From Perna viridis (taxonomy: Eukaryota), in assembly GCA_037379345.1 (NCBI GenBank), contig CM074523.1, positions 31,573,678 through 31,637,677 of the forward strand: a stretch of DNA of 64,000 nucleotides, in the 5' to 3' direction. Position numbers and translations under genes: made by a program. The stretch's first letter is position 1. The number at the start of each line of letters is the position of its first letter. Positions 3,306-60,928 of the stretch are shown piece by piece. The notes under the pieces were generated by a model. The model saw only the letters and a list, made by a program, of their open reading frames with translations, was not told the origin of the DNA and made no database searches.

Positions 3306-3738
3306 TTATAATCATTTCACAACAAATCAAAATTACCTCATGTAGTATTGAGGGTAGCAATATATACATTATATAAATTCCCAAAACCTGAAGGGAAGAT
3401 GCCAAATACATCTTTCTTTTTCCAGCAAATGAAGTAAAATCTGTTGTTCATCTATCAGTTACATATTCAGGTTATATTTCCGTTTCACCTACTTCACTGG
3501 GATCTCCATCTATTATTTACGACACGAAATTTACATTTTATGTAATCGTCCATGTAAGGAAATGAAGACAATATTTGAAACTTCCAAAACGAGATTTGAC
3601 TGGTGAAAAACATGTCCGACAAAAAATATAGGTCGCCCCATCTCGAATTTTCAACCTATGATTTCTAATACCAACATGGATAAATAATCGTAAAGTTTGG
3701 GTTCAATTATATTGATATACATGTAAAGTGAAACTAGC

Positions 3739-3771
<33 letters not shown>

Positions 3772-6135: not shown

Positions 6136-7665
6136 CTATACATGACAGGACTGTTGCACATGTTTTAAGGCCAACAGCCGAAAAAAATTAAAACATCATT
6201 ATCTACATAATGCGTTAATGAAAATAAAGTTTGATGCCATTTCAACAATGTGCTTACCGATGTACTGTGTCCATTCTCCCACTTTTGGGTGAAGACCGAA
6301 TCACCTGTTAGATTTTGTTTCTTAATACGTGTTTTTTTTATTTCATTTTCTTTTACGTGTATGTCTTCTTTACTTTTTACTTGACAGCTGTGACATATTC
6401 AAGAGGCTGTCTATGCGAAAATCAGGCAGTGGGCATCACAAGGCAAATCACCCATTTCATATCACAATTTATCCTTTATCAAAGTTGAAAACTGGCTTTG
6501 GATTAACTGCAATGGCTAGAAATTACATTAAAAGCATTGAAATGCATTGAAAAAGGAAGATATCTCTATGTTTATTAGCAAAATGTGGTTGCTATGTTAG
6601 GTAAATTTAGAATCGTTGTCTGAGCCATCCATTGTCGATTTAAAAAAAAACCTAACTTTTTTGACATATGACATACATATGTTATATACATTGTAGTCAA
6701 TGGGAGATAACTCTATCTGTCATTGACAAAAATTGAGGTTCCCCTAGGAACAGTTTAGCGGTAACTATATCAAATCTCTGTTATTTGAGACAGATTTACT
6801 ATTGTTTTCGATTTGCGACAGTACGGCGCCAGAATTTTTTTCCTGAATGTATTTCAGATCCAGAGCTAATTACTGACAAAAACAGTGTAGAAATGTTCTC
6901 CAGGACTAGAATTCATTTATCCTAGAATATAAAATCTCAGTCAGTTGTGAAAAAGCCGTAGATCAACCTTTAACGGAATGAGAAACTCATTATGATGGGG
7001 AGGGGCGGGTGGGGGAGGGGGCTAATCTCAACGCCAATTCTACAGGTTGTACTTGTAAATGACAAAAATAAACATTCTAGTGACGAATACGTTGAAAAGG
7101 GGGTCCGTTCCAACGTCAGGACTGCCGACTTATAAGATTCAATTGCACAATTAAGGAAAGAAAACGAGACCCCTTGATTCATAATGATTTATGATGAACT
7201 TGCTAATAAAAACACAAAATTAAACAGTTGAAAATATCTAGGGATAAATATTCTAAAAAGAAGACTATCCTTCCGTGAAGTAAATAGTGCCGAAATAAAT
7301 TAAGACAAACTAAACTGGCATCAAAATTAGAGAAGGCAATCCTTGTTTAAAGCGCGAAAGCGATAGTCCGAATTTTAGAAACTGTGTGAGAAGTGGGAAA
7401 ATCCTTTTGATCCCACATATCGACATACCTGATAATCATGTCAGGTTGATTCAAACACGTGACTAGATGTCCCCTTCATATGCCATTCATCAGCGTCTAA
7501 TTCTATGGAAAAAACGTCTGAATATATATTTAATGTCAATATAACAAAATTTCTGAGATCCTATTTATGTAAAAGGAAAATATTGTTTATATGTAGTTGA
7601 TCCAAGGACAAAAATATACAGATTGATAATAGTAACATGTACATTTCCCACGAGTTGTCAGGGGT

Positions 7666-7990
7666 GGTATATCCATCTGCACCATGAAAACTGATTTATT
7701 CAACGGGTCATAGTTTTCCTTTCCTCGTTTGTCTACCCCGGATTTGACTTTTTATGAGCAACTCGGTGGGTGTTTCTAGAAAAGCAGACGCTTACCCTAC
7801 CGGTGTACCTGGTCCATGCTCCCAGTTTTCAGTGGAAACCGAGTGGCTCATTTGCTTTTGTTACGTTGTATGTATGATTTTAGTTACTTTATGTTCTTTG
7901 TTGTGTATGTCTGTTTTCCGTGTCTGGTCATTGTCCATTGATTACATTTTTTTGATTACCGCTTTAACCTTGGTTCCCTTGATTACTTTT
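7666..7990 (+). mobile_element. Naiad-type PLE 3'-end fragment (includes the last RT codons)
   Basis: Matches the reverse complement of 41943-42270. Confidence 0.88.
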
Positions 7991-8415
7991 GCACATCATG
8001 TGCCAAGTCATTTAGACACTCTTCCAAGTCGACATTAAGGTTCTGGTGAATTATCTGATGTTCACTCTACACAATTTACTTTTTACTTGACAGCCGAATT
8101 TAGGTGAGCACTCAGACTTGGATTCTGGTTTAGTTTATGAAAATATAGGTGAAGAGTTAGGATACCTTAGTTGCCAAAATGTAATAAGCAATCTGATATA
8201 CATTGCAATTTGAGTGATATTTTTGTCATGATGTGAACATAGACAGTGCTGGACTATAGTAGAATCTATGACAGTTACAATGTATGAATGTAGTTTGGAT
8301 AAATTTTGACATACAGGAGCTGATACTCTTTCAACATATGTATATCCTGATTTGTTAACCATTTTTTTTTGTCGATAGATTTCCATCTTTAGACTCTGAT
8401 GTTTTTGATATAGTG

Positions 8416-8768
8416 CTGCATGATAAAATTGCTCTGTCAGGCAGAACAAATTATAGCCATTGTCGTAGGTGACTTTTTACGGACTTAAATATCCCTTTAT
8501 TTAGGCAGTACTTAGGCGATTATTATGATCCGATAGTTGTTTTGGAATATGGCTGGCCGATTAATTATGTCAAAGATTCTTTGCCAAACCCGCCATCCCG
8601 TTCTGACTCCATGACTACACAACCGAAATCGACAATTATATTTCTAAAGAGATAGAGAATGGACATAGTTGTGGTCCTTTTGACAGTTACCCACTTAGTA
8701 TTAAACAGTCCATCGCCCAATATTTTACAGTTCCAAATAAAGGAGGGTGGCCGTCGCGTTACAGTCGA
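8416..8768 (+). pseudogene. DIRS/Ngaro reverse transcriptase N-terminal remnant
   Basis: LHDKIALSGRTNYSHCRR*LFTDLNIPLFRQYLGDYYDPIVVLEYGWPINY...EIDNYISKEIENGHSCGPF...TVPNK..GRRVTV, with stops and frameshifts. Confidence 0.8.
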
Positions 8769-9589
8769 ATGGAGGAAATTTAGCAGTGAACTATTGATTC
8801 TTTTATATGGATAAGAGTGTTTCAAGATCTGGAAATGTATCAACTATTTTTAGTTGACCAACATTACTACATGTATGTTTTTTTCTGTGTTTTAGATGGA
8901 GAGATAAGGTTTGTGGAGATAAAAGTTTGATTTTCGGAATAGTAATGCGATGTTCTCCTTAAGCTTGCCAGGAACAACAATTTCTTACAATTATATACTG
9001 AAATTAAATAGCATTATGTTTTTATGCACTTTGTGTAATCAAACATGAAGTATTTATGTGCTAAAAAGCTCCATCAATATTCAAAATACGTCTACATAAT
9101 TGAGCACATACAATTATGTACACCTCAACATTAGTCTTTACTTTCTAAATGCAATAAAACAAACACAAGTTTGGATCCTGAATGGCGCAGTGACCATCTC
9201 AAATTTTATTTCCTTAATACAATATGTATCTGATCTGGTTAAAAGTTCATCAAACTACAAAAATAAAGTCCATCAAAAACACAAAATACACTGCCTGACA
9301 GAATCTTTAACACGTTCTGTAACAAAATAATCTACAAAATAAATACAACAGATTTAAATACTGTACTACATGTATATAAAAACTTATATTACGTGCGATT
9401 GTGTGGTCACTACCGAGTTCTCGATAACTAAATACTAAGAGGGTTTTTAACGTCATTGACTACCCTGTCGGGTCTCGCACGAACGGTAAGTAAATACCCG
9501 TGCAAATAACTTAATATATACTAACATCCAAACCGGTTGACGGCAATAGTTATCCAACTTATACAACATCCCCATTAATAGATTAATGC

Positions 9590-10670
9590 GCAATCTTTCA
9601 AATTCCGCATAGCGCATATAAATTTATTAACTACATGAAGTATTAATTATATTGAGGATTTTGGAAGAGTGGATACATTACAATGCTAATACGATCTTTT
9701 ATCCATTGCTACAAAGATGTTTTATATTTATTTGATTTTTATTCGCTTATCTTAAATATTTTTTCTTGGATCGATTAAGAACTAAATGTATGTGTCCAGT
9801 TTAACGACTTAAGTCGAGTCTGGTGTCGTGATGTATCGGTGTTTCTTACTTGTTATGTTTCCTTACCTAAGCAGGGTATTCTAAAACTAATAACTAATTA
9901 CCGAAGACCTCAATTTCCATTCGCAACTTTACATATTAGACAAATGGTTATTAGACACCAGAATTCCCATAGAAGCTTGTAAGTGGATGTTTCTAACATT
10001 AGATTTTTTCGGCATGTTAAGAGCCTCAAATGTATTATGTTCTTCTGCCTTTTAAGAGAACCATGATTCGACGCAGTCCGTATAGGTTTACCCTTTAACC
10101 TTAAAGACGCTCTTCCATGGAAACGCAAGTCACCTGATCGCAATTCTGTTTTCCGATTGACCAAGTACTGATAACTTAGTGGCGTTCGAACAAATCTGTA
10201 TCGAAAATTGAAATTGCGTGTCATGTATTATTTCCTGAATGAAATGTAGAAAATTATAAGTAAAAAGAACAAATTTTATAGCGTCTGCTATTTTAAAAGA
10301 TTGTACTTGTTTTTATATATTGTTGTATTAGCTAGGAATGTTGATGATCAGATATTATGACCATATAGAGCATATATTAATATGCTGGAAGGGATTTCAG
10401 ATATGACGTCAACTCATCAATCATAGCTATCCCAAGGTCAGAAAGAAAGATTTAACTCCCCTTACAAAATCTAAATTTCTGCTTTTCTTCCATAGATTGT
10501 TGAGATGAAGATAGCCTGTCACCTTCTCAGCATAATTTTCATTCTCTTGGCCATGGGGTGCGACACTTGCCACTCAATCTGGGGTATCGGAGTAAATGTT
10601 AATGGCGCATGGAGACTGGAGATCATCCTTGTACCAGACATACATCAAGAATGATCACATCAGATTATTC
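9590..10670 (+). pseudogene. Tyrosine recombinase (YR) remnant
   Basis: GSIKN..VSS; WMFLTLDFFGMLRASNVL (~9984-10035); IL*PYRA; PLTKSKF; FHSL..GATLATQSGVSE*MLMAHGDWRSSLYQTYI (10537-10646). These correspond to the R, H-x-x-R, H/W and Y catalytic regions. Confidence 0.85.
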
Positions 10671-10756
10671 TTCTTCACATTAGTCAGATCTGTGTTTCCA
10701 TGTAATTAACAGACCTTCATTTACTAGAACTTAGCATCAATATACATGTATGTCTT

Positions 10757-10944
10757 AGACTTGACCTTAGTCCTGCTCTTCTCTTTGAACTCCGACTTTA
10801 CCATAGTCCTGCTCTTCTCTTTGAACTCAGACTTTACCTTAGTCCTGCTCTTCTCTTTGAACTTAAACTTTACCTTAGTCCTGCTCTTCTCGTCGAACCC
10901 AGAGACTTTACCTTTAAGTTAGTCGTGTTGTTCTCTTTGAACTT
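10757..10944. repeat. 36-bp tandem repeat (~5 copies), GACTTTACCTTAGTCCTGCTCTTCTCTTTGAACTCA
   Basis: Direct units immediately 3' of the YR remnant. Confidence 0.9.
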
Positions 10945-11222
10945 CTGATATGTTTTATAGTATTGCATTGTAGTTATTTCATTTGATTTTGTTAGTGTTA
11001 TGGAAATTTTTATAGGTCAGTGTCACATAATGTGCTGATTTGTATAAATGTATATGATACACTTCTTGAGACGTTTAGATTTCCTGTACGCACGATATCT
11101 AAACGCACACTAAACGCTCACCAAACGATCGATAAACAAACCTTCTATCGTGCGTATAAACGAACGCTCCTATCCAATCGTGCGTTAAAACGCACGATAC
11201 GATAAAAAAGCTCCTAGCGTGC

Positions 11223-13820
11223 TAGTACGAATTTCCTCTGACCCTGCAACCCTCCTCTTTTTTATTTGGATATTGACATGTCGGGTTGGGGTCAGGACGA
11301 TGTGCCATACAAAAAGTTGGAGATTCAGCGGTACCGCGGAGTATCGCCCTTCACGCGCTTCGTACGACTTTCATGTTAAAATCGTGTAGGTGATGCATAC
11401 CTAGTTCGATTCGGGATTCATTTTTCTTTATGCTGATGTACGTTTTATCGGCTATTTGTCATAAAATCTCGGTAAAAAGAAGTCTGAAAGCCTTAACCCA
11501 GGGTCAGCACTCATTTACTTTCGATTTCCAACTTTGAGTGACGCAAGCGAGATTTGGTCATCCTGTTAGAAACATATTCTGAAAAAAAAATATGTTTAGT
11601 TGCATATGATGAGGCACACTGCATATCAGAATGGTATGTTGTATATAGTGACAAAAAGAAATGTATGCAGTACAGTTAGAAATCTACATGTCTTGTGGAT
11701 GTACATAAAATGACAATTGCAACCTGGTAGCTGCCTCCCATGTGTAATAACTTATGTTTTACATGAAAAAGGGCATTTTTTGTAAAGGGTTATTGTTCGA
11801 GCTGGCACACATTGTATATTTATTTTTTTTACAATACACAATAAAAACCATATTTAATTTTACAGGTGATTAGATTTTAGGGAGGACCATAGAAAAGTTT
11901 GAATTATTCAAAGTGAAATAAATTCCACAATTCTCAATCTAACTGCAACTTCAACCAAAGACATAAGGACATATCTGTTGTATTGGAGCTAAGTGAGGCA
12001 TCTGATGTGTCAGTTTTATCGAACAATTAAAAGTTATATATACATGTACATGTACATTTGTATATCTGCAAATTGAAACAATTAATATTTGTGTTGGCTC
12101 TCAAATCCTAAAATCACAATGTTTTTGTACAGAATGATGTTTTTGGCATTGATACAAAAAAATAATTTGTAAAATGGACCATGTATTATGTTTTATTATT
12201 CTGTCTTCGTTCAATCTCTGAAGCATCGACCATTGTATTAGCAAGGGGCAAGTGATCCAAATTCCTGAAAGGAATATTTTACTCCTCCAATGAAAAGAAA
12301 ATAATGATTTTATGTTTCCCCAATTACTAAACAAGACATTTTTTTTCAAAATGAAATATTGATTTCAGTTGCTTCTGAGTTAAAACTAAATGTTTGTGCA
12401 ACATAAATTTCTTATTTGACATCAAATCCCTGCCCCCTAAATCCTACAAGAATATTGTCACTGGAAGATGTAACTAAGTTTACCAGTGTATAAACATGTT
12501 TTATTTATGATGCATGCACATAGTAATAGAGACAAGTGCAACATTTTGTTTAAACATGTAGGTACTCAAGTAAATTCCAAATCAACTTTTAATTAACTAA
12601 TGTGAATGTTATAACTCACCATAACATACTTAGGTGAAGAAAACTCCTCAGCAATTAAACAAATTGAAAGCAAATGCGAAACCCTACAGTACAAGAATGT
12701 GTCCAACTTAAAATAAAAAGCTTTGCCATATGCAGCATGATACAACCACAGTCAATTAAACTCTGCAAGTGTGGACACAATATTAGTTATTGACACACTT
12801 AATATAGAGTCTTACAGTTCATTATGGACATAACAAATCATTTGGACACAATATTGCACATTTTGAAATTCAATACAAGTATAAATGTCTGCTTTAGAGT
12901 GCATTCATGGATCACTTTGTACTTCATTATCTCAAAAAATATGATTTGTTAGGGCGTGACTTCCTTTATAATTTGAAAACTGCAAAAGATATTTGAAATC
13001 TAATTGAAAAAACGCAGGCAAGGATTTTGATGTGACATCTACAAAATTTTTCAAACCAAACCAGAAATAAACAAGTGTTTTTCCCCTTTATTTCTTGAAT
13101 CAAGGGGAAAAAATACTTGTTTAAAAAATAAGTGCAAAACATATTTATAAACTGCTATTTAAAAATATGAAGCAATTTAAAATCTAGAAGAAAATGTATA
13201 TGATTGCCTTCTGCCCCCCCCCTCCAACACACACACACCCAATGCATTTCCAATATTTTAATAACCTGCTCGAAAATTGAGTTTAAACAGTTGAATTAGG
13301 GTATTCTAAGGATGAGGTGCCACATGTACTATTTTACACATCTAAAAAATTCACAGTTCAACCAAAAGTAATTGTAATTTATAAATTGGATCCAACCACG
13401 TGTTTTCATATGTTGTTCCAGTGCACACGCTTGTTTAGACACACAAAGAAGGCGGTGTCTGTTGATCTCACGTGACGGAATTTCATTTGCATACGACCAA
13501 ATCTCGCTTGGGTCACTCAAAGTTGGAAATCGAAAGCAAATGGCTGCTGAACCTGGGTTAAGGCTTTCAAACTTCTTTTTACCGAGATTTTATGACAAAT
13601 AGCCGATGAAACTTACTACAGCATAAAGAAAAATGAATCCCGAATCGAACTAGGTATGCATCACCTACACGAAAGTCGTAAGAAGCGCGTGAAGGGCAAT
13701 ACTCCGCGGTACCGCTGAATCTCCAACTTTTTGTATGGCACATCGTTCTGACCCCAATCCGACATATCAATATCCAAATAAAAAAGAGGAGGGTTGCAGG
13801 GTCAGAGGAAATTCGGACTA
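11223..13820. mobile_element. Academ DNA transposon, AcademH-type (helicase-bearing), internally deleted non-autonomous copy
   Basis: Ends TAGTACGAATTTCCTCTGACC / GGTCAGAGGAAATTCGGACTA; TIRs ~11223-11559 and ~13495-13820; exact 9-bp TSD CTAGCGTGC (11214-11222, 13821-13829); RecQ-type helicase remnants inside. Confidence 0.88.
11590..12030 (+). pseudogene. RecQ-like SF2 helicase remnant (motifs II and III) within the AcademH element
   Basis: 11590-11633 reads ICLVAYDEAHCISEW, followed by a GTATGT...TTTACAG intron. From 11866 it reads LDFREDHRKV*IIQSEINSTILNLTATSTKDIR, with a stop and frameshifts. Confidence 0.85.
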
Positions 13821-14185
13821 CTAGCGTGCGTTTATACGCACAATAGACGAATAATGAAAAATAATAATATTAACAAATAATGACAAAAGAAAAAGTAGAA
13901 AATTGAAATAATGAAAATATATAAATTAATAAAAGCAAATAATATGAAAATAACAGTTGAATCAAGGAAATAATCAAAGTACAAATTAATAAACGAACGT
14001 TTCCTCGTGCGTTTAAACGAACGCTTGTTTCGTGCGTTTATCGTGAGTTTAAACGAATGCAAAACGATGTGTTTCCGTAGTCGAACTCTCCCGTCGAATT
14101 TCTGATTTTGCTTTGCAAGACATGATCTTAGTAATTTTAACCGAGTTTTGTCATTTTAATAATCATTATGAAAATTAATATCATA

Positions 14186-14635
14186 TTATAAAAGTTTTGT
14201 ATCTAATATATTCTGTCTTTGTATGACGTCACTGTTTGCCTCCACGTTATCGTTGGTACCTGCTTGAATAGCTTGATCAACCATATTGGTTACTCGGGTA
14301 TTCTCGTGTTCCTCTGATATTCCTATCATGCACGAAAACCAAGATGTCACTGATGGAAAAGTTTTTAAGAAAGATTTTTGAAAAATATCATTTAAAAATG
14401 CATAAATAAGAGGATTTAGGCACGAATTTGTGTACGACAGTGTATGTGCGAGCAACTTTATGATAAACAACACTTCCGTTTTGGGGAAATCTGGGTAAAG
14501 TTTGGTGTAAATATTTAGAACGTGAATTGGAAACCAGAATATGGCAAATAATAGAATGATTAGAGCAATCATTCTGGTTATCCTTTTCTTCCTTCTGTGT
14601 TGGGATTCTGGTTGGGTTTCTACGCATCTTCTTGT
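14186..14635 (-). CDS. GPCR coding exon 4 (ICL3, TM6, TM7, C-tail, stop)
   Basis: TTTCAG|TRRC...KKRITRMIALIILLFAIFWFPIH...NSCLNPLIYAFL...TKLL*. Confidence 0.93.
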   Translation of the reverse strand, partial: TRRCVETQPESQHRRKKRITRMIALIILLFAIFWFPIHVLNIYTKLYPDFPKTEVLFIIKLLAHTLSYTNSCLNPLIYAFLNDIFQKSFLKTFPSVTSWFSCMIGISEEHENTRVTNMVDQAIQAGTNDNVEANSDVIQRQNILDTKLL

Positions 14636-17600
14636 CTGAAATAAACAACAATATCGCAATACAAAACCAAAACAGGTATAAAGAGACATTGAAGAAAGGG
14701 TTAGCGACATATTATCCCTTAAAAATACTAAGTCTGGACCTATTTCTTTTTTTCTTGAGCAATCTTCACTTTGCACACTTCGGAAGCATTATATTATACG
14801 TAATTGTTCGTTTCTAACCATTGCATGAATCTAAACTGAAATCCTAATTGAAACAAAGCGGCTTTCTGACACCTACATGCATTTTTTTCATTATTTTTAT
14901 TCATAAACACATATTTGTTTTTCTGAAAATTCAAAAATGCTTTTTCGTACAATCAAATGTTTCATAATCAAATAAGATTTTAAAGTTGTTGTCCTCATTT
15001 TTATTGTAGAACATGAGAATTTTTAAAAGACGTGACAAATGCCGCAATATTTTTGACTTTTTATCTTAAAGATATCGTTTGATATCATAAAGACTGCATA
15101 TAGGAGTTTAACAAACCTCTCTGATGGATCAAGATTGCATACAGGAGTTTAACAAAGCTTTCTGGTGGATCAAGACTGCATATTTGAGGTTAGCAAAGCT
15201 CTCGGATGGATCAAGCCGATTTGAGCTGTTTTCTTTAATTGTTATACGAACTTTAAACAGAACTTAACCTGAATGTCAACTAATGCAATAACGAATTTTG
15301 TAGAATGCTAAAACTATAGAAATGACATCCAAAAGGCAAAATTTACTTGTCGTCTGTATCCACGATGAAGATTACGTAATATCCGGTAATAGCAGGCGAC
15401 AATAATTAACAGCGGGATGACGTAATTAGTTGCTGTCACTGTGATGAGGATGACTTTACCGAGTGTTTCATCAGGCCACACCTCCTGGCAATAAACATGA
15501 CTTTCTCTGTAAACTGTTCGGTGATACATTGCAAACGGAATAGATATAAAACACGCCACTGCAAAAGCAAATAACTAGTTCATCAAAAATTGGCAAAAAT
15601 ACAAAAGCGTAAATAATAAGACAACTCAGAGACACCGAAATCCAAATCGTTGCATGGCTTCAATGACGAAACAAGAAAAAAAGACGGTCTACATACAGAA
15701 TGTAACAGAAAAAAAATAAAAACTGAAGATTAGGGAACAAGAAAAAAAACTAAACCGTGAGTAACATTAGGTGAGCCGGATGGATCGAATCAGTTGATTT
15801 CATCAATATTCAATATTGAACAAACAACATTAAATATACAAGTTTTGAATAATCATTTTTCATATCTACGGAAGGCAAGCCATTTTAGCAAGGTTTTCTT
15901 TTTTTAAATGGACATAACCACCAACACACGACAATCTGGTTGGCGGTCTCGTTTGGAAGAACAATTTATTTTTCTTTGAACTATTTTACTTTGGTACATA
16001 TAATTACATGTTGTACCTAAATGGTTTGAAATAAATTAATGTATGAAATAATTTACCGTACATCATATATTTGAATTTGAAGTCTACTGCTGTCCATTGC
16101 TCTAACAGGAGAGTAAATCAGTCTGTCAGGTTGGAGAGTTACTGAGTTACTTCTTTTTTTAAAAAAAGTCAAAGTCGGGAATATTAATAAGGTCTATTGT
16201 AAAAGGACAATCACTTCTTCGTACTTATTTTTCTTTTATTAACTTCCCTCTTCACAGTCACAAAGCAAATGGTTGGTACCTCATCATTCGGGTTACAAAT
16301 GGTCTTTTCAAACATTTCTGAACAAAATTATATTTGTAATCATCTGCATGTGTTACCAAACTACATATGCCTACCTGTCCAAACAAGAAGACATGTGATT
16401 GTCGATATCCGTCGATTTCTCCAATTTATAGAACTAAGAGGGTGGACTATTGCGTAATACCTATCTATAGTCATCGCTGTTAGTGTGAAGGACGTGGCAT
16501 GTAATGTTACCTGCAACGATATAAAAAAAAACATTTTTTAAATCTTGATCTTTTCGGTACTTCTATACATACAATCCGTATTAAGCAATTACAAATGTAA
16601 TTTTACGGTAAGATCACATTTAAAAACAAAAAAAAACTGAAGCATCAGCATCATTAACATAAAACTCTTAAGGTTTAAACTAAGGTGTTCCGGAAGGATA
16701 AGCAGTAAACGGAAGAAAGTTGAAATAAAGCAGAGGTAATCATAGACAGAGTAAAATAAGCCGCATAAAAAATGACATCCGCAAACTTAAAATATTCGAC
16801 TATATCTCTAAAGCAAACTTTAACTTATACATGTAACAGTAAAGCATGTCTGAACCAAGCTGTAATTTTAAATTTATCGGTTAAGACAGGTACAGTGTAC
16901 ATGTAGGTGTTCGGTTTACCAAGGATCAAAATACATTAGAATTGATGTAAAAGTGTATGGTTTAAACAGGTTTCTATTCAGTGACCGGCACTCTAGCACA
17001 TTGCTTAAAAAATAACCATCGGGAACCTATCTTGCAGGTTGTACGCCAAGCGACTTCCGAGTTTCAGCACCTTCGGTGCTTTGATTTTTAGAAGAACTAT
17101 GCCGTACTAATACCTCGCAATGTTTTTTTTTTCATCTGATTATCATTAGCTCATCAAATTTCAGGTGTTAAATCAACTTGATAAACAATTACTCCTACTT
17201 AGTTAAGTGAGATCATACCTTTACAGGTTTTTTTTTAAATTTTAGTTTCTTTAGTTTAACAGGAAAAATATTTCGTTAATTGACCCCGATCATTACATGT
17301 ATATAATTTAATTTCACAAGTAACACGGATTCTGATTCGTCAATCATCATCTCACAGTTATCACTTCTGTATCCAAGCTTAAGGCTATTTTACATTTCAG
17401 AGAGCGTCCACAAAAAATCCAGAAAGTGGGTGGTATAAATGCACTTTTTTTCCCTTTGGGTCAGCCTTAACCACAAAACAATCGTCTAATACAGATATTG
17501 TATTCCCTGCAATGTTAACTTTAAGTAGGGACAGGTCTAGGAACGTCTTTGTGTTGTACTGCATTTTTTCATTCCGGGCTACTAGTTATCGGTATTTGAT

Positions 17601-24949: not shown

Positions 24950-25190
24950 GTCCTCAGTATAGTAAATAAATTAAGTTTAGTAAAATTTGGAGGTTATTCA
25001 ATAATTAGCCGTACTTATCTAGAACGTCATTTGGTAAACAAGAAATAAATTGTCTGTTAAAATCCCAACTTTGTATTTCCGGTTGGAGAAAGTAACCTCT
25101 TGACAAAGTAGATCCGTGTAATTCATGTCTTCAATACAGTCAACAAATTAATTCTAGTAGAAGTCAGAAGTTATTCGATAACTATTAATC
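24832..25190. repeat. 177-bp tandem duplication spanning the GPCR start codon
   Basis: CCGTACTTAT..GAACGTCATTTGGTAAAC occurs at 24832 and 25009. Confidence 0.9.
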
Positions 25191-26408
25191 CAGACTCTAG
25201 AACCTTTATTGTTTACATGGTCCTTTCGTCCCAATCGACAGCTCATAATTGTTTTATGTCAGAACATTGTGCATAACTGAAGAATACCCCAAATGAACTT
25301 TCTTTCTTTTGCTTGAATAGGGATAGTATCTGATCTATTGATTTCCTGGAAAGTTTTTCTGTAATCTTTGACAGAATTTCTCTCGCTGGTGACACATTCC
25401 TGACACTTATTTAATTTGATTTAATCTTTTATTGCCTTTTTCTACACCATACATTGTACTCCGCGACAGTAATTAAACGAATTTCTGTGAAACATTGAAA
25501 ATAACATGGAATCAACTTCAGTATTGTTTTCACAATTGTTGATTTGAAGCGTTCGTTTTTATCCTGATTGCTATATCTGAAACTCAGTGATTTTTTTCCG
25601 GAAATCAGAGGACGCTCACTTGGTTACTCATTTATTATTTGTACCTATAGACGTTGAGTTAGTTTGCTGTTTACAGTAATGTATAGAATTTGCGTGTTCA
25701 TAACACCATTTTTCTCGTTCTACATTGTACTATCATGGTTTATTTGAATTTGACCATTCTGTGTATTCAGGCAATGGAAGGCACATTACAATTCTCAATT
25801 TGGTCTTTTTGCCTCGAACATATTCAAGACATCTAGAAAACCACTAAAACGCTATTTAAATTTATCCAGAAGCATTTTTGACGTTGATATTTTTCAATTG
25901 CTAATATAAGGAAAAAGTGTGGGGAAATTTTCCAGCCATTTTTCCATGGTGCATTACAACTAGACATGACCTTTCAATATCTTATAAAGGCAAATTATAC
26001 AAACGCTTTGATGGTTAATTTTTCTGGATGTTATCAGGTATAAATACTTGGTTGATGTAATAAAATCTTTGTGTATTTTCCATCATGTGCCACACCTTAT
26101 ATCCTTATATATTAAACATTTAGCCTGATTTGCCTGACTTAATTATTTTAGTCAAGTTTAAGGTCAATATCACCCGGCAGTCATACAAGTTACTACACAT
26201 GTAAAGAAGTATGGACGGGGCGTCAGCAACGTCCTACATTGTATATATGTAATATGTATAAGACCAGCACTATGAATGGCTAAAAACTATTCTAACGGAT
26301 ATCGAAATTTGTCAACTCGGAAGTAGTCTTTTAATACGTCGATGGATACGATTTTATACCTATTTTATTTAATAATAATATGGAAATTATTGGCTGTGTA
26401 GAAATGTA

Positions 26409-46100: not shown

Positions 46101-49100
46101 TCCGAAAATCCCCCTTTTTTCTTAAAAAACACTGGGACATTGAAAACGCATATTGAAACTGAAAAAATACGCGCCTGAAATAAGAAGATATCTTGAATAC
46201 ATCGATAATTAAAACAATAGTATCCAGAATGACTTTTTGTATATTGTACAAAGCGTATATGCCAAAAATTAATATTTAGTTCATGTTGATGTATATGCAC
46301 CTATTTTGACTGGGAAAAGTTGAAATATTTATTACTTGGACTCATTTTGAAACTAAGACACTATTTATATGTACCGTGTCACCAAAAGCTTGTTTAATCT
46401 GCGGTATTCTGAAAAAAAATGACAATAACGAGTGACACAGAAGAAATTCTGAAAATTTTCCTTTTTCGACTTAAAGCAATTGTCACCCCAAAAGGAAAGT
46501 CCAAGCGCCCGACTTGATCAGTTATTTAAGTACATTATTATCTTAATTATGAAGCCTAAAATCATGGTACGGTATCAGTATGCTCAGAATGAGAATTCAG
46601 TTTGATACTGAGACTGGTTTTCAAGGAGTAGGGGTAATATTTTAAACATTAAAAAAAACATCTTCCTTGAAAATTACTTTTTTTTGTATTTATTTATTAA
46701 TTTCATGTCAATATGTTAAGCCCTGTTGGAGATATTGCCCTTTTCAACTTTTTTTTTCGCTATTTTTATTGTTAATTCTTCAAGTATTTTCTCCTTAGAA
46801 ACTACTGGAAACCAAGGTATCATAATGAGTGTACCGTTAGGAATTTTTAACCAAGAAAAAACATGGTGCTTTTACAAAAACAGAACGTTGTTTATCAAGA
46901 CACGTTCACGAGCAATTCAGGCTCTTAAGAACTTCTGGTTTTTATTGTATTTGTATTGAATTCCCTTTTACAAAATGGTTACTATTCACTTACGTATGTA
47001 TTTACTATTATGATTCATGTGCGCACGCACTTAACATTATGCTTAACTGTGATTTAATTCTTAATTACGTCTCAAAGGGATGGACGTGAACTCGAAGATA
47101 AATTAAATATGTACTCATGTACCCAAATAGAGGTGGGAAACAGGGTTAGTTGTTATTGAATAAACAATGAAGTAGTATTGAAAAAAATGTCTTTATACAT
47201 TTACAGATAGTGCAATACTGTTAAAGATCCATCTAAATTAGAACACTTAACCTTTCTAAAGGTTTTATGTGCATTAGAAGGCACATGGAATGCAATTACT
47301 GCATATGAACTGTTAAGTGCTTTCTTTGTTAGAATACGTTAGTCAGTTGACATTTCAATGTAAAGAGCACAATATTACATAATTCTTCGTAATTTTATTT
47401 TATTTTTTTTTTTTGCATATTCATTTTATTCTATGCAAGGCGTAAACACTTCAAGTTTAATTAATACCAGGAACCATACAAGTACAGTATGGGTGAAATG
47501 AGCATCATAAATAATGTTCAATAAAAAAGCAAGTCAAAAGATTGTTGACATTATTTAGGAGAAATCTATATTCTAAAACGCAGTTCGTTTCAGTCATGGC
47601 ACAAGTCACGCTAATGTTTTATGCTTCCCTGACAGCTTACATAAGGTGGGTCAAGATTGACACGACGATATCATTTAAGCTTGGTCAACTTTAAACAACT
47701 TTTATTCTTCTATTTGTATTGCAATATACCGGAAATCATTAACCTTATTGGAGGAGGGATGTTTTGTGTAAATACCACTCTGTCTAAGATTCAGGCAAAA
47801 CATGTGTAAGGTGTGTCACATGAAGACAAAAAAACATACAGAATTGTTTTTGCATTATCCAAGTATGTATACCTCATAACCTGTAGAAATATCCATTATT
47901 GTCTTTGGAAAAAAATTGATCGGTCAAATTTAGTTGAAATACATTATGTAAAATGGCTGAAAAATTTTTCCACACATTTTCCCTATTTAAGTAGTAAAAT
48001 AATATCTACGTCACAGATGCTTCAGTATAAATTTATAAAGCTTTTCACTTGTTTTCTAGATGTATTGAAAATGAGGTAAAAAAGAATAAATTGAGAAAAA
48101 TGATGTGTCACCCACTGTACTAAGTCATGACCGTATATTGGTTTCCAACTTTTAGTGTTTGCTTTAATATTTCAATTTGTTGTAAAAAATAGATTTTATT
48201 TTTTGACTTTTTCACGTTACCAAGTGTTCGGTTATTCCGTTATTGAAAACTGCGCCAGGAAAACTAATTTGTTCAACGTGTCATAGTTTTCCTTTCCTCT
48301 TTCGTCTACCCCGGACATGACGTTTTATAAACAACTCGGCGGGTACTTCCAGAAAAGCAGAGGGAGAGAGAGAAAAAAAAGAGAGTTGCTCATTTGCTTT
48401 TGTTCATTTATATGTACGATTTTAGTACTTTGTGTTCTTTGTTGTTTACATGTATGTCTCTGGTCATTGTCCCTGGGGATTACATTCTTTTGATTACCGC
48501 TATAACCTTGATTCCCTGATTACTCTTACATTTATTTTTCGTATCTTTAATGAATTATACACATTCTTATGTTTTTTAAACAAATCAATGATAAGTTGGA
48601 CCTGGTTATTTAAGGTGGTATTTAAGAAAATCGATTATAATTTAAAAAAAAAGAAACAAAAAAACTAATACATGTACAAGATACATTTATGATACATCAA
48701 ATTCTCAATTTTCTATTAAAGTTCGAAATAATTTTTTTAAAACAAGTCTCGCTTGTGTTACTTCTGGATAAATTTACTTTGAAAACATGTCTGTTTTTTA
48801 TTGTTTTGTTTTGTGTCCGTATGATTTTTATTTTAGCAACTTTTATGGTTTTTTTTCTTGCAAACATTCTAATTTGTATTTACACTGGTTCAACGTTGGA
48901 ATTATGTTGAACAAAAGTAAAAAAAAATTTGTAAACTTGAGCATAGAATACCTTCTCCATTCGCGCAAAACTTTTTAGTACATTTCTTATTGTTATATAA
49001 TGGAGAAATTTGTTTTTTTATAAACATGCGCTGCATCGTTTGCACAATTATGGTCTATCGTTGTCTCAGCAATGCTGACAACCCAATTTAAGTATATATT

Positions 49101-52100
49101 AATTCAAAGATAATCAAGTTTACTACATGTATCATAAAATCACTTCTACTGAAAACGAATTATTTTTGAAATTTTTTTCACGAGCTTCCTAAAAAAAAAC
49201 CCAGCTTTTAAACAGAATCTTTTGAATACCTTAATTATGGATGAGTATCAAAAATAAATGTACGATCGCTTGAGCTAAGCTGCAAATGACACCCGCTTCA
49301 AGGCGAAACATATATTATATTTTTTTGTTTTCCCATGAATTTTACCTGTTTCTATGCGCTGTGTTCTGTGCTGTGGTGTAAGGACCTCTGACGTTAAGGA
49401 TATGTCATAATGAATTTCGAATGTATGTCATGTAAGCGTCTGTAAATCAATTTAAGTGTAAGTGCTTGTAAGAATCAGGCAAAATGAAAAAAAAATCAGA
49501 AACATGCATATCAAAACCCCATCGAGCCGGCAATAAAATATCACTCTTTGTTGCTTTCTCTATTTGAAAAGGACATTATTTGATCTCTGAATTTCGCATA
49601 ATTTTATGTATAAATTTGTAAATACACCAAAATTTTGACATCAACCTCTAGAAAAAAAAGAAAATATGAGAATTTTGGGAATATTAATGGATTTTCTTTT
49701 ATTGACCTCGGTAAGAACATTGAATAGCCCACTCTCCTGTAAATAACACTGGTAAACATACGTAGTAGATAAAAATGTTCAAATAAAACACTGCAAAAAA
49801 CTTTATTTTTACAAAAGAACTTATTATTAAAGACATATTATGATATCTAAGAAAATAACAAGAGATACGATCCTTCTCTCTTAAAAAGCGTATTTTAAAA
49901 AAGTGTTACTTAGAATCATAAATCAAAAGTTAAACAGAATATTTGCCTGTACATCTATAGAAAAAAACATTATCCAGTAACTCATACACCTGATAAATTA
50001 CAAGTATCATGAAAATGTCGGAGCTAATAATTTCAAAGAAAGCCAACCAAATGACTTCAGCTTTTCCAAAAAGCTAATCTTATAACGACGTGTAATTTCC
50101 TCTAAAACGATATTCCAATCCCGATCCACCAGTGCTTACATGTATATAAATTTATAATAACTTTTAATTATAGTTCCCTTTTATCAATTTAATGGGTTTT
50201 AATATCAAATATCACTTATACATTATGAAAGAAACCTTGAAATCTGTGTCTTTTTCGTGCTGTTTCAAACTAAACGCAAGTGCTTCTTATTTTTCTTTGT
50301 TTCCCTCTTCATGTCATACTAATTACTATTAAAGTAAAGAATTTATTGACGTAACAATGTCCAATGAAATACACCAGGATTGTTTCCCTTCTGGCACAAA
50401 ATAGGCAATCGCCGTGTAAATTTAGTAACTAATGTACAAATTTAAGTGGACAATTATTGGCTGATTCAGGCGTTCGGATATAAAGGGGGCTGTTACATAC
50501 ATGTAAACATGTAGCTAAAGGCCGAACGGAGCGAGGCAAACACATTAATGAGGCTAGATCTAAAAAGAAAAATCAATGCATCATTCTTACATGACTTAAC
50601 TTAAGGGGAGTTTCGCTGGGCACGCCATTCCTTGATTCTACGCCTACGAATGTTTAACAAACAATAAAATGTGCAAGGCATACCCGAAGAGTAAATAAAC
50701 TTCATTTTACTATTTTTCTACAACAGGCACCTAAGCTCGAAAACATGCCGGGAATAGGTCATGTTAATGAAGACTTTGATACAGAGCAACTGGTGTATAA
50801 CCTTACTGTAACAGACAGTGATCCAGTCCAATGTTCCCTGTTTGATTCGGAACCAGACAACGCGCAGTTTTTACTGAAAATACACAAAGCCATTGCAGGT
50901 AATTATTTTTTATTTTGATCTAGGAGCAGAAAGGGACACATGTAATCTACATGTATTTTATACAAAAAATCAACAGTCTCACGCTTATGTTTCCGTTTCA
51001 AAGAGGGAAATGTAGCCACAAACGGAAATTTCTTACTTCTTATTTGAATGTTTTGCTTACAATCGTAATAAATAACTTACATGTGATTGCTTATGCAAAA
51101 CAAATTGATCTCGAACCCGTGATAAATATAATTAATTTAGTATCATGGACAAAACCCAGACATCGAAAACAGACAAACACAACCAAGCACATAAATTAAC
51201 CAAAATAGTACACAGTACATAGTAACAAATGTAAATGCGCAACTCGCACTCCACTAAAAAAACTGGGAGCGTGGACCAGGTGTACCGGCATGGTAAGCGT
51301 CCACTGCTTTTCTGGAAACACCCGCCGAGTTGCTCATAAAAAGGCTAAAGTCCGGGGTAGAAGCATATTCTCTTCTCAAGTAAATCTACCAAATAACCGA
51401 GCATATGTCGAGAAGATACGTGTATCTGTATCATGATAATATTTGTCATCAATGAATTTTTCTGAAATTCAACCATATTTAGTATGAGATATTACAGTAT
51501 TTTATGTAATGTTGATAAGATGCTTGCATTTGAAGGTCAAACCAATGGTAGTTTAGCATACGGTGAGTTATAGAATCCACTCTATTCTTCAACAAATATT
51601 TGTATTATATTGTGACACGTGTGATTTATAATTTTAATCACCTTGACTTAGGAAGAGTACACGTGACACTGTTTTCATCTTTATATATTTATTTCTTTAA
51701 TATTAATGTGTGATTTTTACACTTTTTTGTGATTTTCATCTTCAATTTTCAAGTTTTACACTTCGATCAGTATCATTACCCTGTAAACCGTAAAGAGAGT
51801 CCAATTAGTACTGTACACGTCCGAAGTCAGCAGTAAACATGCATCTGACACTTATTTCTACCGTTTTAAGTTTTAAAAGTTTAGTTACTGATTGATCAAG
51901 ATTATCTTTTAGTGTGTGAGATGCATTTAAATGTCGTTACAATTTGTAATGTGTATAATGTAACTCAAAAAATGTAAAATAGCTTTTTTGACATTTTATG
52001 GCACTGCTTATAAAAATGCGTGTTGGCGCGTGTGGTTGAAAAGATGAAAATTAACATTCAATTTGTCAATTTGGTTGATTGTACAAAAATGTACATGTAA

Positions 52101-55100
52101 AGTGTATTTTTTTTATGGTTTCATACAATTGAAATTGATTTGTGACAAGCTTTCTGGGTGGTTGGTTCTCTTTTAGCAATCCAGATTATTTCGTATATGA
52201 AACCTATACAACAAATTCGAAACATTTTAACCTTAATTTAGTATATGTCCAAAATGCAGTTTATATTTCGCCCCAATTTTTGTCCTGGATCTATTATACT
52301 ATATAAATATCAACCTGATTATAATATTTTGTTCTTTTAAATCAATTTATGTTTAAATATTTTTTTTTAATGTCCAGTTAACTGCCTGATTCAGTTCACC
52401 GTTTGATTCTCATAAAATCATCTCAACAAGAGACAGTTACAAGTACTTGCATTTATAACTAAAGCGCCATCATAGTTAAGGCAGTGTATTTATGAGGGCT
52501 AATGATTAAAAGCTACACTTACATGGAATAATAACCTGTTTTAATTTTTATTATTAATCTAGAATTTGGAGTATATCTAAAAGCAGGAGCAAATCTGTCC
52601 TACAGTCTGCAGTCTTCGTATGAATTGAACGTGACGTGCACGGATGGGTCGATGTGGTCGTCTGATATCATTTATGTTTATGTCAAATCAAATGCACCTC
52701 CAGTTTTCCAAAACTTACCAGGTAATAAAATATCAAATCGAACGCACTTTCAGTTTGCCAAAACTATCAGGTAATTATATATCAAATCTATCACACATCC
52801 AGTTTTCGGAAACGTAATCATTATATATCAAATCCAACGAACCTCAAGTTTGTTAAAACCTATTACGGTACGACCTCGGTCGTCTAAGGGTATCGTGCTA
52901 GCCCGAGTGCGAGAGGGTATGGATTGATCCCCACCAAGTCACATCAATCACTTAAACATTAGTTGTCTTCTCCGCCTATCACACGGTATGTTTTGGAGTA
53001 CAGTTGTTCCGATTGGGGTGGCATGCCTACTGTACCTGTGGTTTGTTGATTATGTGAGCTAGCAGAATAACAATCCGGTTCAATGTGTCGTCCTTAAAGC
53101 AAGGCCTTTTCAGTTGGTCAATCGTTGTTGTCCTGAATGCATAAAATATTATCCGTAGGACGTAAAATCATTCGAAATCAATCTAAACCTACTGGCCTGT
53201 TCGGGTAATGACATGTCGCATCGAATGCACATCCGATATTCAAACACCTACGTACATGTATACATTGGATTCTGTCCCTTTTGTTTTAGTTGATATCAGT
53301 GAACGTAACTGTCTTGGTTTGAGACAGTGGCTCCAACTTCCCGGGCGTCAACACAGTGTTCAGGAACAATTCGTACTTCTGGTTCCTAGTAATCCAGTTT
53401 TACTGGTCCTTTTATTTTAAAAAATCTCACGAATGAAACCAGGCTTTATACATGTGCTGATAAAGGGTATGATATGGATGTTCGGTGCTAAAATTTGTAT
53501 GAGTTTGTATGAATTATAAATGGTTATTTCTGTGTTTTCTTGATGTCAATGCTTCCGTACTATTTCAGGAAGTACTTCAATTTCTGCACGGACAGCAACT
53601 ACTGGGACATCATTTTTTACAATAGGTGCCACTGACGATGATGATACGAATTTAGTATTTACTATGAGTTGTGTTTTACCACAGTGTCCGTTCAACATGT
53701 CTAATGGTAATATTTAAACTACGAGCATCGCATCCTATTCAAACAGCCATGACTTCCAGAAAACATAAAGTAATAGTGAAAATAATATGAAATAAACGAA
53801 TCACAATTAACTGCATGGAGATTCTGCTTCAGTTATAAAAGTTTCAAATTATTTCTCCGCTCGAGATGGTGAGATTTTCAACATGCGTGCTTTATCGAGC
53901 ATGTCTTAAAGATTGCTTGTACCAAAAAGAGTGCAGAAATAATTAAAATCAATAAGAGGCTTTCTCCCATGAAATATGTACAAACCTATATGAAATGTAA
54001 AATGGCGGGAATAGGCTTGCGAACATTATATCACCGCCAAGTTGTGAAAACATCACGTGCATTTTTAATCACCGTCATAAAGAAGGAGAAATGGACTTCT
54101 CCGCTTCCTGATTTACATGTATTACGTATCTCTATGCAAGCTTATTGGTTCTGCTATACATGATGCTCATTAAAAAATCCGCGGAGTTATGTCTGATGTA
54201 TTTTATTAATTTGCATAAAGAGGCTGGGTTGAGTTCCGAATTAGGCAGAGGCGTTAAATTACAACCTCTGAGCAGGAGATGTGAAAATTTAATGTAATTG
54301 AAGGTTATCACTTAATTTCAATCAATTACTTATTATAATCCCCTCCCGGTAACATTAAACGCAGGGTCACTTAATCTGTTTTTCCTTATTCTTTGTAAGA
54401 AAACTTAGATACATGATTTATGTCTTTAATGAAAATTAGGCAAATGTTGATGTGGATGAAACTAAATATATATTGGAAGATATTTGAAGAAGAGTGTACT
54501 TTAAATTTTATTTATTAAGCTGAAGGAAATCTTCACTTCATTTCCACATGTATATAATTAGGTAATTTTGAATTTTCATTTATTCAACATGTATGTTTGT
54601 GTACAGATCTGTAGAACGAATCCCATGACCCAGTTGTTGAAATGATTTTGTACAAATTATTCAAGGTAATCAATATTAAGATTTTAACATTCAGATACAT
54701 TTTCTGCCCACAGGTGGTTATTTATATCCTACGTCATCATTGATTCACGATAAAACTGGTATATATGACGTCACAGTTACGGTGACGGACGGGAAGTACA
54801 CGACAGGTCCTTCTCTTTTGACCATCATTATTACAAGTAAGAACTGGACTGCGTATACATGTAGCTTGAAATTTTGGATTGATATTTCCTAAAATCATAT
54901 AAGAAAAAAACAGTTCTGATTCTAGATTGACGTAGGCTATCCAACAAATGAGGTAACTCTAACGTTTATTTGTATTGTGACATTATTTTGTAAATAGCAT
55001 AATGAATTCAATACAAACATCAATTGAATATAAACGTTACCCTTTCCTAGGATTACACTGTTCTAAATAGCGAACGATATGTTTTACTCCAGACAGAAAC

Positions 55101-58100
55101 AGTCCTCCAGTTATCAGCGGCGTTACAAAGTCCCTGCTTGTTTCGGAACATACGGCGCCATTGACGTCACTTTTGACACTCTCGATAACTGATGTTGATG
55201 CCCAAGATTCGCCAGTGTGTAGTGTTGACATTCAACCAGCAAGCGGTGTTTCCATATTCATTTTTGATTCACTAGGTAAGTGTGAACACCATGCAATTAC
55301 ATTTCCATGTTACTATTATCATCAGGTTGTTTCTAGAAAAAAAAAATAATACCTTGAGTGTTTAAAGTGAATCAGATTATTAAGAAGGGTTAATTTTTTC
55401 CAAGTTTGTACGAAATAAACAAAATATTCCAAACCTATTCCCTGTTGTTGGAATCCTTAACATGTGGTCCTGAGACATTGATACATATTTAATTTCTATT
55501 ATAGTTACATGTATCCCAAAACTACATGTATATAAAGTACACTATCTCGCTAACATACAATGTATAAAGGCTTCCAATGTATCGCGAAATCGCTAACAAA
55601 AGAAAAAATGTGATACATGCAACATTGGACTTGACGCTTAATTCAAAAATATATTTTCCCAAGAAAGAAAAGAAAATCCCAATTTCGTCCATTTGCATCC
55701 TTTCCTAATGTCATGTTCAGAAAATTACGGTCATATTGAGTGAAATTGATACAATGTAACAAAAAAAAAAAACACATGCACACACACACACAGATAGTAT
55801 GATCATTTGGAAAACTGTTGAAATACATGTAAGTACATATAAATTGTCAGGTTATATTGCTCCCGAATGGAGCCTTCGTAATTGTATTATAAACTTGGTT
55901 CATTATACCTATGACTTGGTTATTTCTTGTCAATTAGCTAGATATTTGTTTGCAAATATATTTTATTACATTAATTTTTTGCTGAATTTCCGAAAATTGT
56001 CCATAAACCCTGACCAACAAAGCCACTTGGGTCTAGGTCATCTCTGCTGTTTTTAATCACGATAAGATTCTTTATATCAATTCCCATAACAACCCTTGAC
56101 CTAGAGCTTGACTGTCCAGTTTGAGTGGGCGGTGTGTTATGTCTTTTTACGATGTAAGGAAGTCGATATGATGACTGAATTTCAGCCAACCGTGCAAAGA
56201 TCGGCATGTACCTAGTTTGGCCAAGTTATGAACGAAATTTACGCCTGCGCATTAGATCACTTCATATACAGCAAGTGTATCTATACAATTTAACATACAC
56301 ACTACATTTGTCTGTTTAGTACAGATCTAGGCCTGCTGTGAAGTATAAATTTAAATTATTTGTAAGTTATGATCTTTTATTGTTATATCATAACGTATGA
56401 CTAATTTCACAATTTAATACGTGCTTTTTTTGTGAAGTTTATCACTAATTGTAATTAATTGCATTTTTGTTGTTTCCCTTTAAATATGGCCTATGTTTTT
56501 TTCTTTCAGCATATAATCTACGTCTTGGACAGAATGCTGTCATAGATTACGAGCTGTTGACGGTTACAACATTTAACCTGACGTTTGTAGCAACAGACTT
56601 CATTGATGTCACATCCGTTTCCGTTTTAATTTCTATCAATGATGAGAATGATGCCCCCATGTTTACCTCACAAACAGCTTACATACAGATCAATGAATCA
56701 GACGTTGGTATAGTCTAATTGTAAAATATGATGTAGTCTAAGAACGTTTATTGAGTAGAAACAATGGTAGTCAAAAATTAAGAAAATTATTATTAAGACT
56801 TAAAAAAAACTTGTCTGTTTAAGTTATCCTACCTACCCTACCACATTATTTGGTTTGTTTTGATGAATGCCGCTAATCTATCATTTTTTTTTGGTTGAGA
56901 ATAATAATAAGTCAAGAAATTCTCCTATAAATGTCAATATAAAAAATATAAAAATATGAAATAATTTTACTTCTAACATAAATACGGATTTCATATGATC
57001 AAATTACAAACTTGAACATGTTAAAACTGCACAGTTTTAAACACCATGGTCCAACAAGATTTGATTAAATACCATGATTTTTTAAACTCCGCCCATCACA
57101 ACATGTAAATGGGGAACTCCCTCTTGATTTCCTCATATGGGCAATAGTATTAGGCTGCAATATGTTGGAATATTGAACTGTTTAAACTTTCAGAAAAATC
57201 AATATCAGGTGCTTTCGTTGAGGTACACGTTAAACTGGTGCGGCTTGTTACTCCACAATAATAAAATAAGACGTTAAACAATAGTACAATATAGAGACAA
57301 AACATGTTGTATGGTATTCATGATTTGTTGCATACATGTATTTGTGACCGGTTGAGGTGAGGTCTTACAATTAAGAAAATAAGGCGTTTTAAGTTGACAG
57401 AACATCCGTGTTTTATATTTGACTAAATAATAATATTAGTTAACGCCACCGAATTCGTAGGGATATTTTAGATAGGTACAGACCACGCCCATTTTAGCAG
57501 ATGCTTCACATATGGCGCTCGAAATGAAGCAATGGTTGTAGTCTCAAGTTTTAAGGACATTGTATGTCAGATACACTTTACTCTGAGTATTCAATGAATC
57601 TGTTAACTCGTCAATTTTAATATTCAGCCAAATTACGAACAAAGAAGCTTCATGGAACTAAAGCTCTATTTAAATTTAAATCAAAGGTATTTATAATTAA
57701 ACATTTAGCGTTTTCAGATATTGTGTCGTATCATAAGATGTCGACTTTCTTTTATAGGCAAATACCAAAATCGGAACAGTCCCCAGCCATGTAGACCAAG
57801 ATGTACATGAAGTTTTGCAGTTTAAAATTCTAGGTGGTACCGGAAGTGGTTTTTTCGACCTGAATCCAACTTCTGGTGATTTGTTCTTTAAAGTCGACTA
57901 TGATGTGGATGTGTCGTCATTTCCGTCTGATTTGTTTATTTTAATTGAAATTAGGGACGGTGGAGGGCTGACAGATAACTGTACAGTGTTCATCAATGTT
58001 ATTGACCTGAATGACAATGCTCCTCATTTCAATGCTACTAGTTATATTTTCAAAGTCAACGCAAACGCCCAGTCTGGTGTAACCATAGGGACTGTCCAAG

Positions 58101-60928: not shown

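Follow-up and report, generated by a model that had tools for sequence, protein, structure and literature searches.

The eight-letter palindrome TACATGTA occurs in 55 exact copies in the 64,000-nucleotide stretch of the Perna viridis genome analysed here (the window; contig CM074523.1, GC content 33.7%). Merging four stacked doubles leaves 51 sites, spanning positions 3718-59906 (Table 1), and these are probably footprints left in the germline, over a long time, by the excision of cut-and-paste transposons that target TA (Tc1/mariner/pogo type). Their density is about one per 1,200 letters (about 0.8 per kb), or about 0.9% of all TA dinucleotides in the window.

The excess is real. TACATGTA is the third-ranking 8-mer of the window, behind T8 and A8, and thus the top non-homopolymer; the preliminary description of this DNA, which had put the count at about 50 by hand against 2-3 expected, was close on both numbers, since dinucleotide shuffles (n = 100) gave a mean of 2.09 copies (sd 1.62, maximum 6) and none reached 55. 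The palindrome is present at the example positions quoted there, although two of them were one base off (the correct starts are 28275 and 43263). In-sample Markov models of orders 5 and 6 would predict 30.6 and 45.2 copies, but we dropped these expectations as circular, because the motif itself trains the model. With the motif masked (leave-out models), orders 1 to 6 predict 1.9, 3.1, 4.1, 5.7, 5.0, and 4.0 copies, so that the excess is at least 10-fold at each order (range 10-26x) and survives the fifth- and sixth-order check that had been proposed. TACATGTA also tops the 136 TA-NNNN-TA classes (26x; the runner-up reaches 6.7x from 4 counts), and no other of these classes is significant after correction once the motif is masked. 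The 51 sites show no significant clustering in the window, nor does their density differ significantly among 4-kb bins (p = 0.11).

Inserted units, their flanks, and neighbouring words

Polarity was assessed by searching the 240-bp contexts of all 55 occurrences against the window; one self-inverted match and one weak 44-bp match were set aside. A paralog spans three of the 51 exact sites (19163, 48447, and 46072), and all three are length gains, of 6 or 12 bp, none of which is common to any sister copy. The motif had been described as derived, and every polarisable site is indeed a gain; with three of 51 exact sites polarised, the basis for that claim is thinner than was implied. The cleanest case is 19163, where 12 bp are added relative to all three sisters, which read AA, TC, and TA at this position (minus strand; TA is the column majority). 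Its flanks hold no CATG that could have served as template, it is the longest of 13 single-copy insertions in the multiple alignment of three repeat families, and it is the sole site free of other readings. At 48447, pairwise alignment gives a gain of 6 bp over all three sisters, but this needs one flank substitution and an 11-bp deletion follows within a few bases; the alternative, which needs no substitution, is TT plus an inverted copy of the adjoining TGTA. Site 46072 gains 6 bp relative to a single sister and adjoins a one-mismatch unit, and a 6-bp tandem duplication plus one substitution would be the alternative there. Among 108 variant sites queried in addition, 44593 (TACATTTA, one mismatch from the palindrome) has a gain of 6 bp over six of seven aligned sisters, and the CATT that it gained matches its left flank in reverse complement. 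Thus, for the three paralog comparisons originally offered as insertions at TA (19163, 48447, and 44593), the lengths are confirmed; an inverted flank copy would explain 48447 and 44593 as well, and the gain at 44593 produces a variant, not exact TACATGTA. The aligned repeat copies carry three sites in 9.68 kb (0.31 per kb, vs. 0.88 per kb elsewhere), a shortfall that is expected if scars accrue with age. In a minisatellite, a 4-bp insertion in one 35-bp unit (4884-4891) makes TACATGTC, which could be a truncated scar or a fold-back product.

For the flanks, TACATGTA was collapsed to TA at each site and compared with the other 5,527 TAs of the window. Adenine occupies position -3 in 60% of the 102 half-sites, compared with 35% of other TAs (p = 4e-7), and position -1 in 47%, compared with 34%; with the sides taken separately, A(-3) is found at 31 of 51 sites (p = 1.6e-4) and T(+3) at 30 of 51 (p = 5.7e-4), against a background of 35%. 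When 51 background TAs were drawn 100,000 times, no draw equalled the observed match to CAYA-TA-TRTG, and scars are borne by 0.26%, 1.14%, and 2.25% of TAs with zero, one, and two preferred bases, respectively. The bias at -3 is specific to A, with G depleted there, and is strongest at -3 instead of decaying as an RY alternation would; no enrichment is seen for C at -4 (G at +4) or for T at -2 at the 51 collapsed sites. In the controls, A(-3) stands at 37% for TAs within 150 bp, 38% for other TA-N4-TA words, and 45 of 108 for other ACATGT cores, and it still holds at 44 of 80 half-sites once the 11 sites whose period-6 extension is at least 2 are removed. One-mismatch variants, themselves in excess (91 vs. 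44-66), have an intermediate bias (78 of 178, 44%, p = 0.013), which is consistent with about a third of them being decayed scars. The targets given in the accessible text of PMC2577343 (Table 1 of that paper) are CAYATATRTG for Tc1, RCAYATATRTGY for Sleeping Beauty (SB), and ATATATAT for Minos, and ZB likewise prefers ATATATAT (PMC7913693, accessible text). A new observation here is that, left and right alike, the collapsed flanks in the window agree with the target consensus of Tc1/Sleeping Beauty.

Stacked units exceed expectation, with four exact doubles vs. 0.93 (p = 0.015) and six degenerate second units vs. 1.24. Existing scars could plausibly be re-targeted, because both of their TAs have the preferred base on the inner flank; stacking would equally result if a scar slipped between its two TAs. 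The proposal that the same sites were repeatedly reused is therefore consistent with the stacking, as is slippage.

A companion pair of 9-mers, TACAATGTA/TACATTGTA, is found 12 times against 2.07 expected (p = 1.9e-6; 0.001 after correction), split 6:6, and is the only one of 512 TA-N5-TA classes to survive correction. Later slippage alone does not account for the pair, since none of the other nine classes made by inserting one base into the motif shows a comparable excess (best p = 0.02). In an enumeration of overhang overlaps, a 3-nt stagger at CAT ends leads to TACATGTA when 2 bp overlap without mismatch and to TACAATGTA/TACATTGTA when 1 bp overlaps; ends CAA also yield the 9-mer pair, and TACAGTGTA/TACACTGTA, the product of ends CAG or CAC, occurs 0 times vs. 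1.07 expected. The companion word hints at source ends CAT or CAA, which is a prediction and not a result. The 9-mers have no flank bias (9 of 24 half-sites), and 45830, the sole one with a sister, aligns ungapped. Another pair, TACACATGTA/TACATGTGTA (5 vs. 0.47), was rejected because it fails correction over 2080 classes, and the SB-type footprint TACAGTA/TACTGTA is not enriched in the window (18 vs. 14.0).

Sequence setting and the search for a donor

The window holds parts of two genes, several repeat families, and one full element with terminal inverted repeats (TIRs), as listed in Table 1. The last exon of the GPCR gene matches best a galanin-receptor-like protein of Mytilus galloprovincialis (75% identity over 74% of the query) among eight matches, seven of them named and all of them bivalve; for the last large exon of the cadherin gene, a word-based search returned no homolog beyond its own record. 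None of the 51 sites lies in the exon-bearing ORF stretches (about 3.1 kb; 2.0 expected, p = 0.13), so the in-frame 6-bp indels in genes suggested in the preliminary description are not seen in these stretches.

Table 1. Features of the window (positions counted from its first letter).
Feature	Position	Strand	Basis or remark
TACATGTA field, 55 exact palindromes (51 sites)	3718..59906	.	Counts, shuffles, leave-out Markov
Double unit TACATGTACATGTA, 12-bp insertion in one of four ~350-bp repeat copies	19163..19176	.	Paralog alignment
6-bp insertion, retroelement 3' end copy	48447..48454	.	Pairwise sister alignment
6-bp insertion giving TACATTTA, retroelement end copy	44593..44600	.	Decayed scar or inverted left-flank copy
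6-bp insertion relative to internal duplicate 45603-45781	46072..46079	.	One sister only
Stacked double unit within 2.6-kb TIR element	12041..12054	.	Element is scar host, not source
Stacked double unit	28275..28288	.	
Stacked double unit	30549..30562	.	
TACAATGTA	8276, 18628, 34967, 45830, 55556, 55750	.	Candidate minor footprint
TACATTGTA	6687, 25450, 25721, 26235, 33204, 38863	.	Candidate minor footprint; companion field 6687..55758
Rhodopsin-family, galanin/allatostatin-type GPCR, four exons	14186-24970	minus	Pfam, homology
Cadherin-repeat membrane protein exons	43811-58582	plus	Pfam
2.6-kb element, ~340-bp TIRs (92% alike), ends TAGT..ACTA, perfect 9-bp TSD	11223-13820		The window's one full TIR element
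High-copy RT-encoding retroelement	41937-43210, 63008-64000	minus	RT-like ORF, RVT_1 lead 16%
Retroelement 3' end fragments	1354, 7665, 19929, 35050, 44545, 48250, 51144, 59477		
Non-coding repeat family	19065-19324, 25772-26100, 47769-48118, 61005-61367		
Non-coding repeat family	18166-18531, 44011-44373, 49445-49589		
Non-coding repeat family	26410-26792, 60167-60569		
Minisatellite arrays, periods 35, 33, 36, 30, 12, 29/59	4849-5180, 5468-6103, 10757-10914, 28636-29083, 36540-36701, 62578-62956		
Local duplication, 77% alike	593-1285 / 2493-3190		

The three non-coding repeat families have related ends near TTAA, one of them with clear TIRs, and may be Kolobok-like. The high-copy retroelement had been labelled a PLE; an RT-like ORF is present, with motifs that suggest a Penelope-like element. 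Its other copies continue differently past 43210 in contigs from other samples, which cover the element very deeply, so the copy at 41937-43210 is cut there. A 22-nt repeat pattern was found in one short metagenome contig with a related RT element and in none of the genome contigs, and a search of the RT ORF against viral contigs gave 0 loci. In the 2.6-kb TIR element, an intron-split remnant reads VAYDEAHCISEW, a DEAH helicase motif. For AcademH elements, a helicase gene and TSDs of 9-10 bp have been reported (PMC10045372, accessible text), and the element is likely a non-autonomous AcademH derivative.

The CA..TG-ended element that the preliminary description called for was not found: three TIR scans of the 64-kb window, which carries 51 scars, turned up no TA-flanked CA..TG TIR element. 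They gave only the element with the 9-bp TSD, TTAA-type repeats, and chance pairs (in one scan, 17 inverted vs. 38 direct control pairs). Nor did Pfam place a transposase family in any of 228 of the window's 239 stop-to-stop ORFs of at least 55 aa (the 11 ORFs outside the scan overlap tandem repeats, exons, or scanned frames).

Four of 12 listed sequencing runs were compared with the window over 40050-60000, and the contigs of three are nearly identical to it. In one run, 51318-59022 lies in a single contig that spans eight motif sites with one other letter and no gap. Over 51318-59022 the other-sample contigs differ at about 0-4 letters per 1-8 kb, a diversity that we take to be unusually low for a bivalve. 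Among the 12 indel rows listed, of 132 from other-sample contigs in which high-copy repeats dominate, none was a 6-bp gap at a motif site, and these comparisons showed no filled, empty, or polymorphic allele; polymorphic scars are not to be expected here, since diversity in the compared contigs is too low. For the run from a second organism, the listed pieces all fall within a repeat.

Origin of the palindromes

Four of the seven features that define a Tc1/mariner footprint are present, and the remaining three hinge on the donor: a resident TA-flanked TIR element whose termini match the inner bases, an allele that still carries the element at a scar locus, and a matching DD[E/D] transposase. 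The site has two TA copies around a few bp (TA-CATG-TA, where sisters have a 2-bp site); it is derived, by insertion at an ancestral lone TA, in all three of the 51 exact sites that have a paralog, 19163 alone being unambiguous; its flanks follow the target-site consensus; and the inserted bases are independent of the flanking sequence. The earlier reading of the motif as a Tc1-type footprint at TA thus gains from the flanks, the lack of templates, and the excess of stacking, while the paralog evidence is thin and the donor was not found in the window. The definition of a footprint follows PMC3408717, and the mechanism of staggered cuts and end joining (NHEJ) follows PMC7827188, which gives the stagger of SB and mariner as 3 nt (accessible text in both cases). 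An element with ends CA..TG would insert at TA, preferring A(-3)/T(+3), and duplicate the TA; its transposase would then excise it by staggered cuts, after which a few of the element's end bases would stay on the flanks as 3' overhangs; and end joining that retained CA of one end and TG of the other would produce TA-CATG-TA. Such scars could be re-targeted, or could slip, into stacked units by way of their preferred inner bases. More speculatively, CAT ends with a 3-nt stagger might anneal via 2 bp of AT microhomology to give TACATGTA as the main product, and a 1-nt overlap might give TACAATGTA and TACATTGTA in equal numbers, as the 6:6 split has it.

The explanation that comes closest to this one, although we consider it unlikely, is a stereotyped error of repair or replication, independent of any transposon (fold-back, inverted templating, or RY slippage), that converges on TACATGTA. 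The inverted-flank readings of 48447 and 44593, the one-mismatch unit beside 46072, the 4-bp insertion in the 4884 minisatellite, and the missing source element in the window can all be cited for it. However, 49 of the 51 sites have no adjacent CATG, so slippage or fold-back cannot be the general origin, and a period-6 extension is missing from 82 of the 102 half-sites; nor is CATG any commoner than background within 30 bp (11 of 51 vs. 22.6%), and 19163 has no template at all. Copying of flanks predicts flank-dependent words, yet no TA-N4-TA class other than the palindrome is significant, and the A-specific peak at -3 is not the decaying alternation that RY slippage would leave. Two more specific forms do not fit: slippage of a (TACATG)n microsatellite requires an adjacent template unit, which most half-sites lack, and could account for second units only, and a hAT-type hairpin (P-nucleotide) footprint, which would fit only 44593 and 48447, does not agree with one fixed word over 51 different flanks. 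Still less probable in our judgement are scars of a TA-duplicating DNA element outside Tc1/mariner, or of a domesticated or orphan transposase with no standing copies. The ends of Tc1 and SB are CAG-type, and the stagger of Tc1/Tc3 is 2 nt. The 9-mer pattern, with the CAG/CAC product absent, does not point to such ends, and 51 scars with zero candidate donors in the window would suit this explanation; against it, TA duplication with an A(-3)/T(+3) bias is what has been published for Tc1, SB, Minos, and Mos (PMC2577343, accessible text), and a donor of low copy number could well be missed in 64 kb.

Selection on TACATGTA as a transcription-factor site of Irx or Myb type, kept at high density, seems to us very improbable. 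The word has been reported as a preferred Irx site (PMC3520976) and is bound by PsMyb37 in Phytophthora (PMC11134190; accessible text of both), and there is a mild excess in the two partial gene bodies (29 of 51 sites in 40% of TAs; p = 0.011, post hoc). But sites occur as lineage-specific insertions in decaying repeat copies, they are neither significantly clustered nor heterogeneous among bins, and selection would explain neither an insertion of exactly 6 bp nor a flank bias centred on the collapsed TA; single scars could possibly be co-opted as such sites later. Hardly credible at all is the decay of methylated CpG in TACGCGTA, TACACGTA, or TACGTGTA, or a HIP1-like substitution process, for which a CpG-depleted context, CG precursors, and an origin by substitution would be expected, and the window does not fit: CpG observed/expected in the window is 0.83, the three precursors number 0, 1, and 3 vs. 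0.18, 0.94, and 1.04 expected, scar density does not drop with CpG (Spearman +0.41, p = 0.11), and the polarised cases are length changes, not substitutions.

If excision footprints are the right reading, about 1% of the genome's TA sites record a full cycle of insertion and excision, and repeat annotation, which counts standing copies only, would miss most of the past traffic of DNA transposons. The scars would be a countable record of germline NHEJ outcomes and of transposase target preference in a non-model animal, with a sharp 6-bp peak predicted in the indel spectrum. They suggest a route by which transcription-factor sites could be seeded genome-wide, and motif finders would report TACATGTA as a regulatory motif, as in Phytophthora. 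Steady-state arithmetic (density x 8, with 0.7-0.8 perfect 8-mers per kb), which assumes gain and decay near balance, gives about one new scar per 150-170 point substitutions; what is odd is to see such a rate and yet no donor in 64 kb. A bolder version, which we put forward as tentative and on balance doubtful, is a hit-and-run TA-targeting transposase with CAT-type ends, active in the germline, whose excisions are so often repaired to one cohesive-end product that there are orders of magnitude more scars than standing elements. Were this true, CATGTA would be the commonest multi-base insertion in the genomes of Perna viridis and other marine invertebrates, and the word would amount to a mutational signature so far overlooked, one that serves as a clock for transposase activity in the past and turns out palindromes of Irx/Myb type; excision scars might then also be the origin of the AM-20 promoter motif of Phytophthora.

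Comparison with known systems

The closest counterpart is the excision footprint of Tc1 in C. elegans, the same 8-mer with a TA duplication around CA+TG; taCATGta is named as such in the accessible text of PMC3520976, citing Eide and Anderson (1988). The flanks in the window agree with the Tc1 target CAYATATRTG at -3/+3 and more weakly at -1/+1. Unlike the situation in the worm, where that source calls the footprint rare, the word here occupies about 0.9% of all TAs, no donor was seen in the window, and C(-4)/G(+4) is not enriched. With Sleeping Beauty, ZB, and Passer (PMC7827188, PMC7913693, and PMC9976928, accessible text) our sites share the TA TSD, a ATATATAT-like target preference, and, as proposed here, staggered cuts with an NHEJ footprint of a few terminal bases. 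They differ from SB, which leaves 3 nt between the TAs, in that the scar has 4 nt and is palindromic, and the 7-mer class of SB shows no significant excess. In rice, natural Mariner/MITE excisions were likewise read, there from genome comparison, but these are heterogeneous, with deletions, fillers, and 8 of 94 perfect (PMC4423477, accessible text), in contrast to the one product that dominates here, which is unusual. Among the papers listed in our literature searches we found no account of genome-wide TACATGTA scars in animals, nor of a density near 1% of TAs; this is a known kind of scar at an apparently undescribed density.

The same word is known from Phytophthora as motif-1 or AM-20, a highly abundant promoter motif (PMC3520976, PMC11134190; accessible text); the authors of PMC3520976 dismissed an origin from footprints and suggested Irx-type factors. 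Of the four sites in the motif-1 table of that paper, one is stacked and two carry T at both +1 and +3, and in several the word is followed by T or TAT; stacking and T(+1)/T(+3) are what a footprint origin would give. The palindrome in P. viridis is like AM-20 in sequence, in high abundance, and in having a stacked example, and it is unlike a promoter transcription-factor site in that it stands in introns, spacers, and decayed repeats, as insertions.
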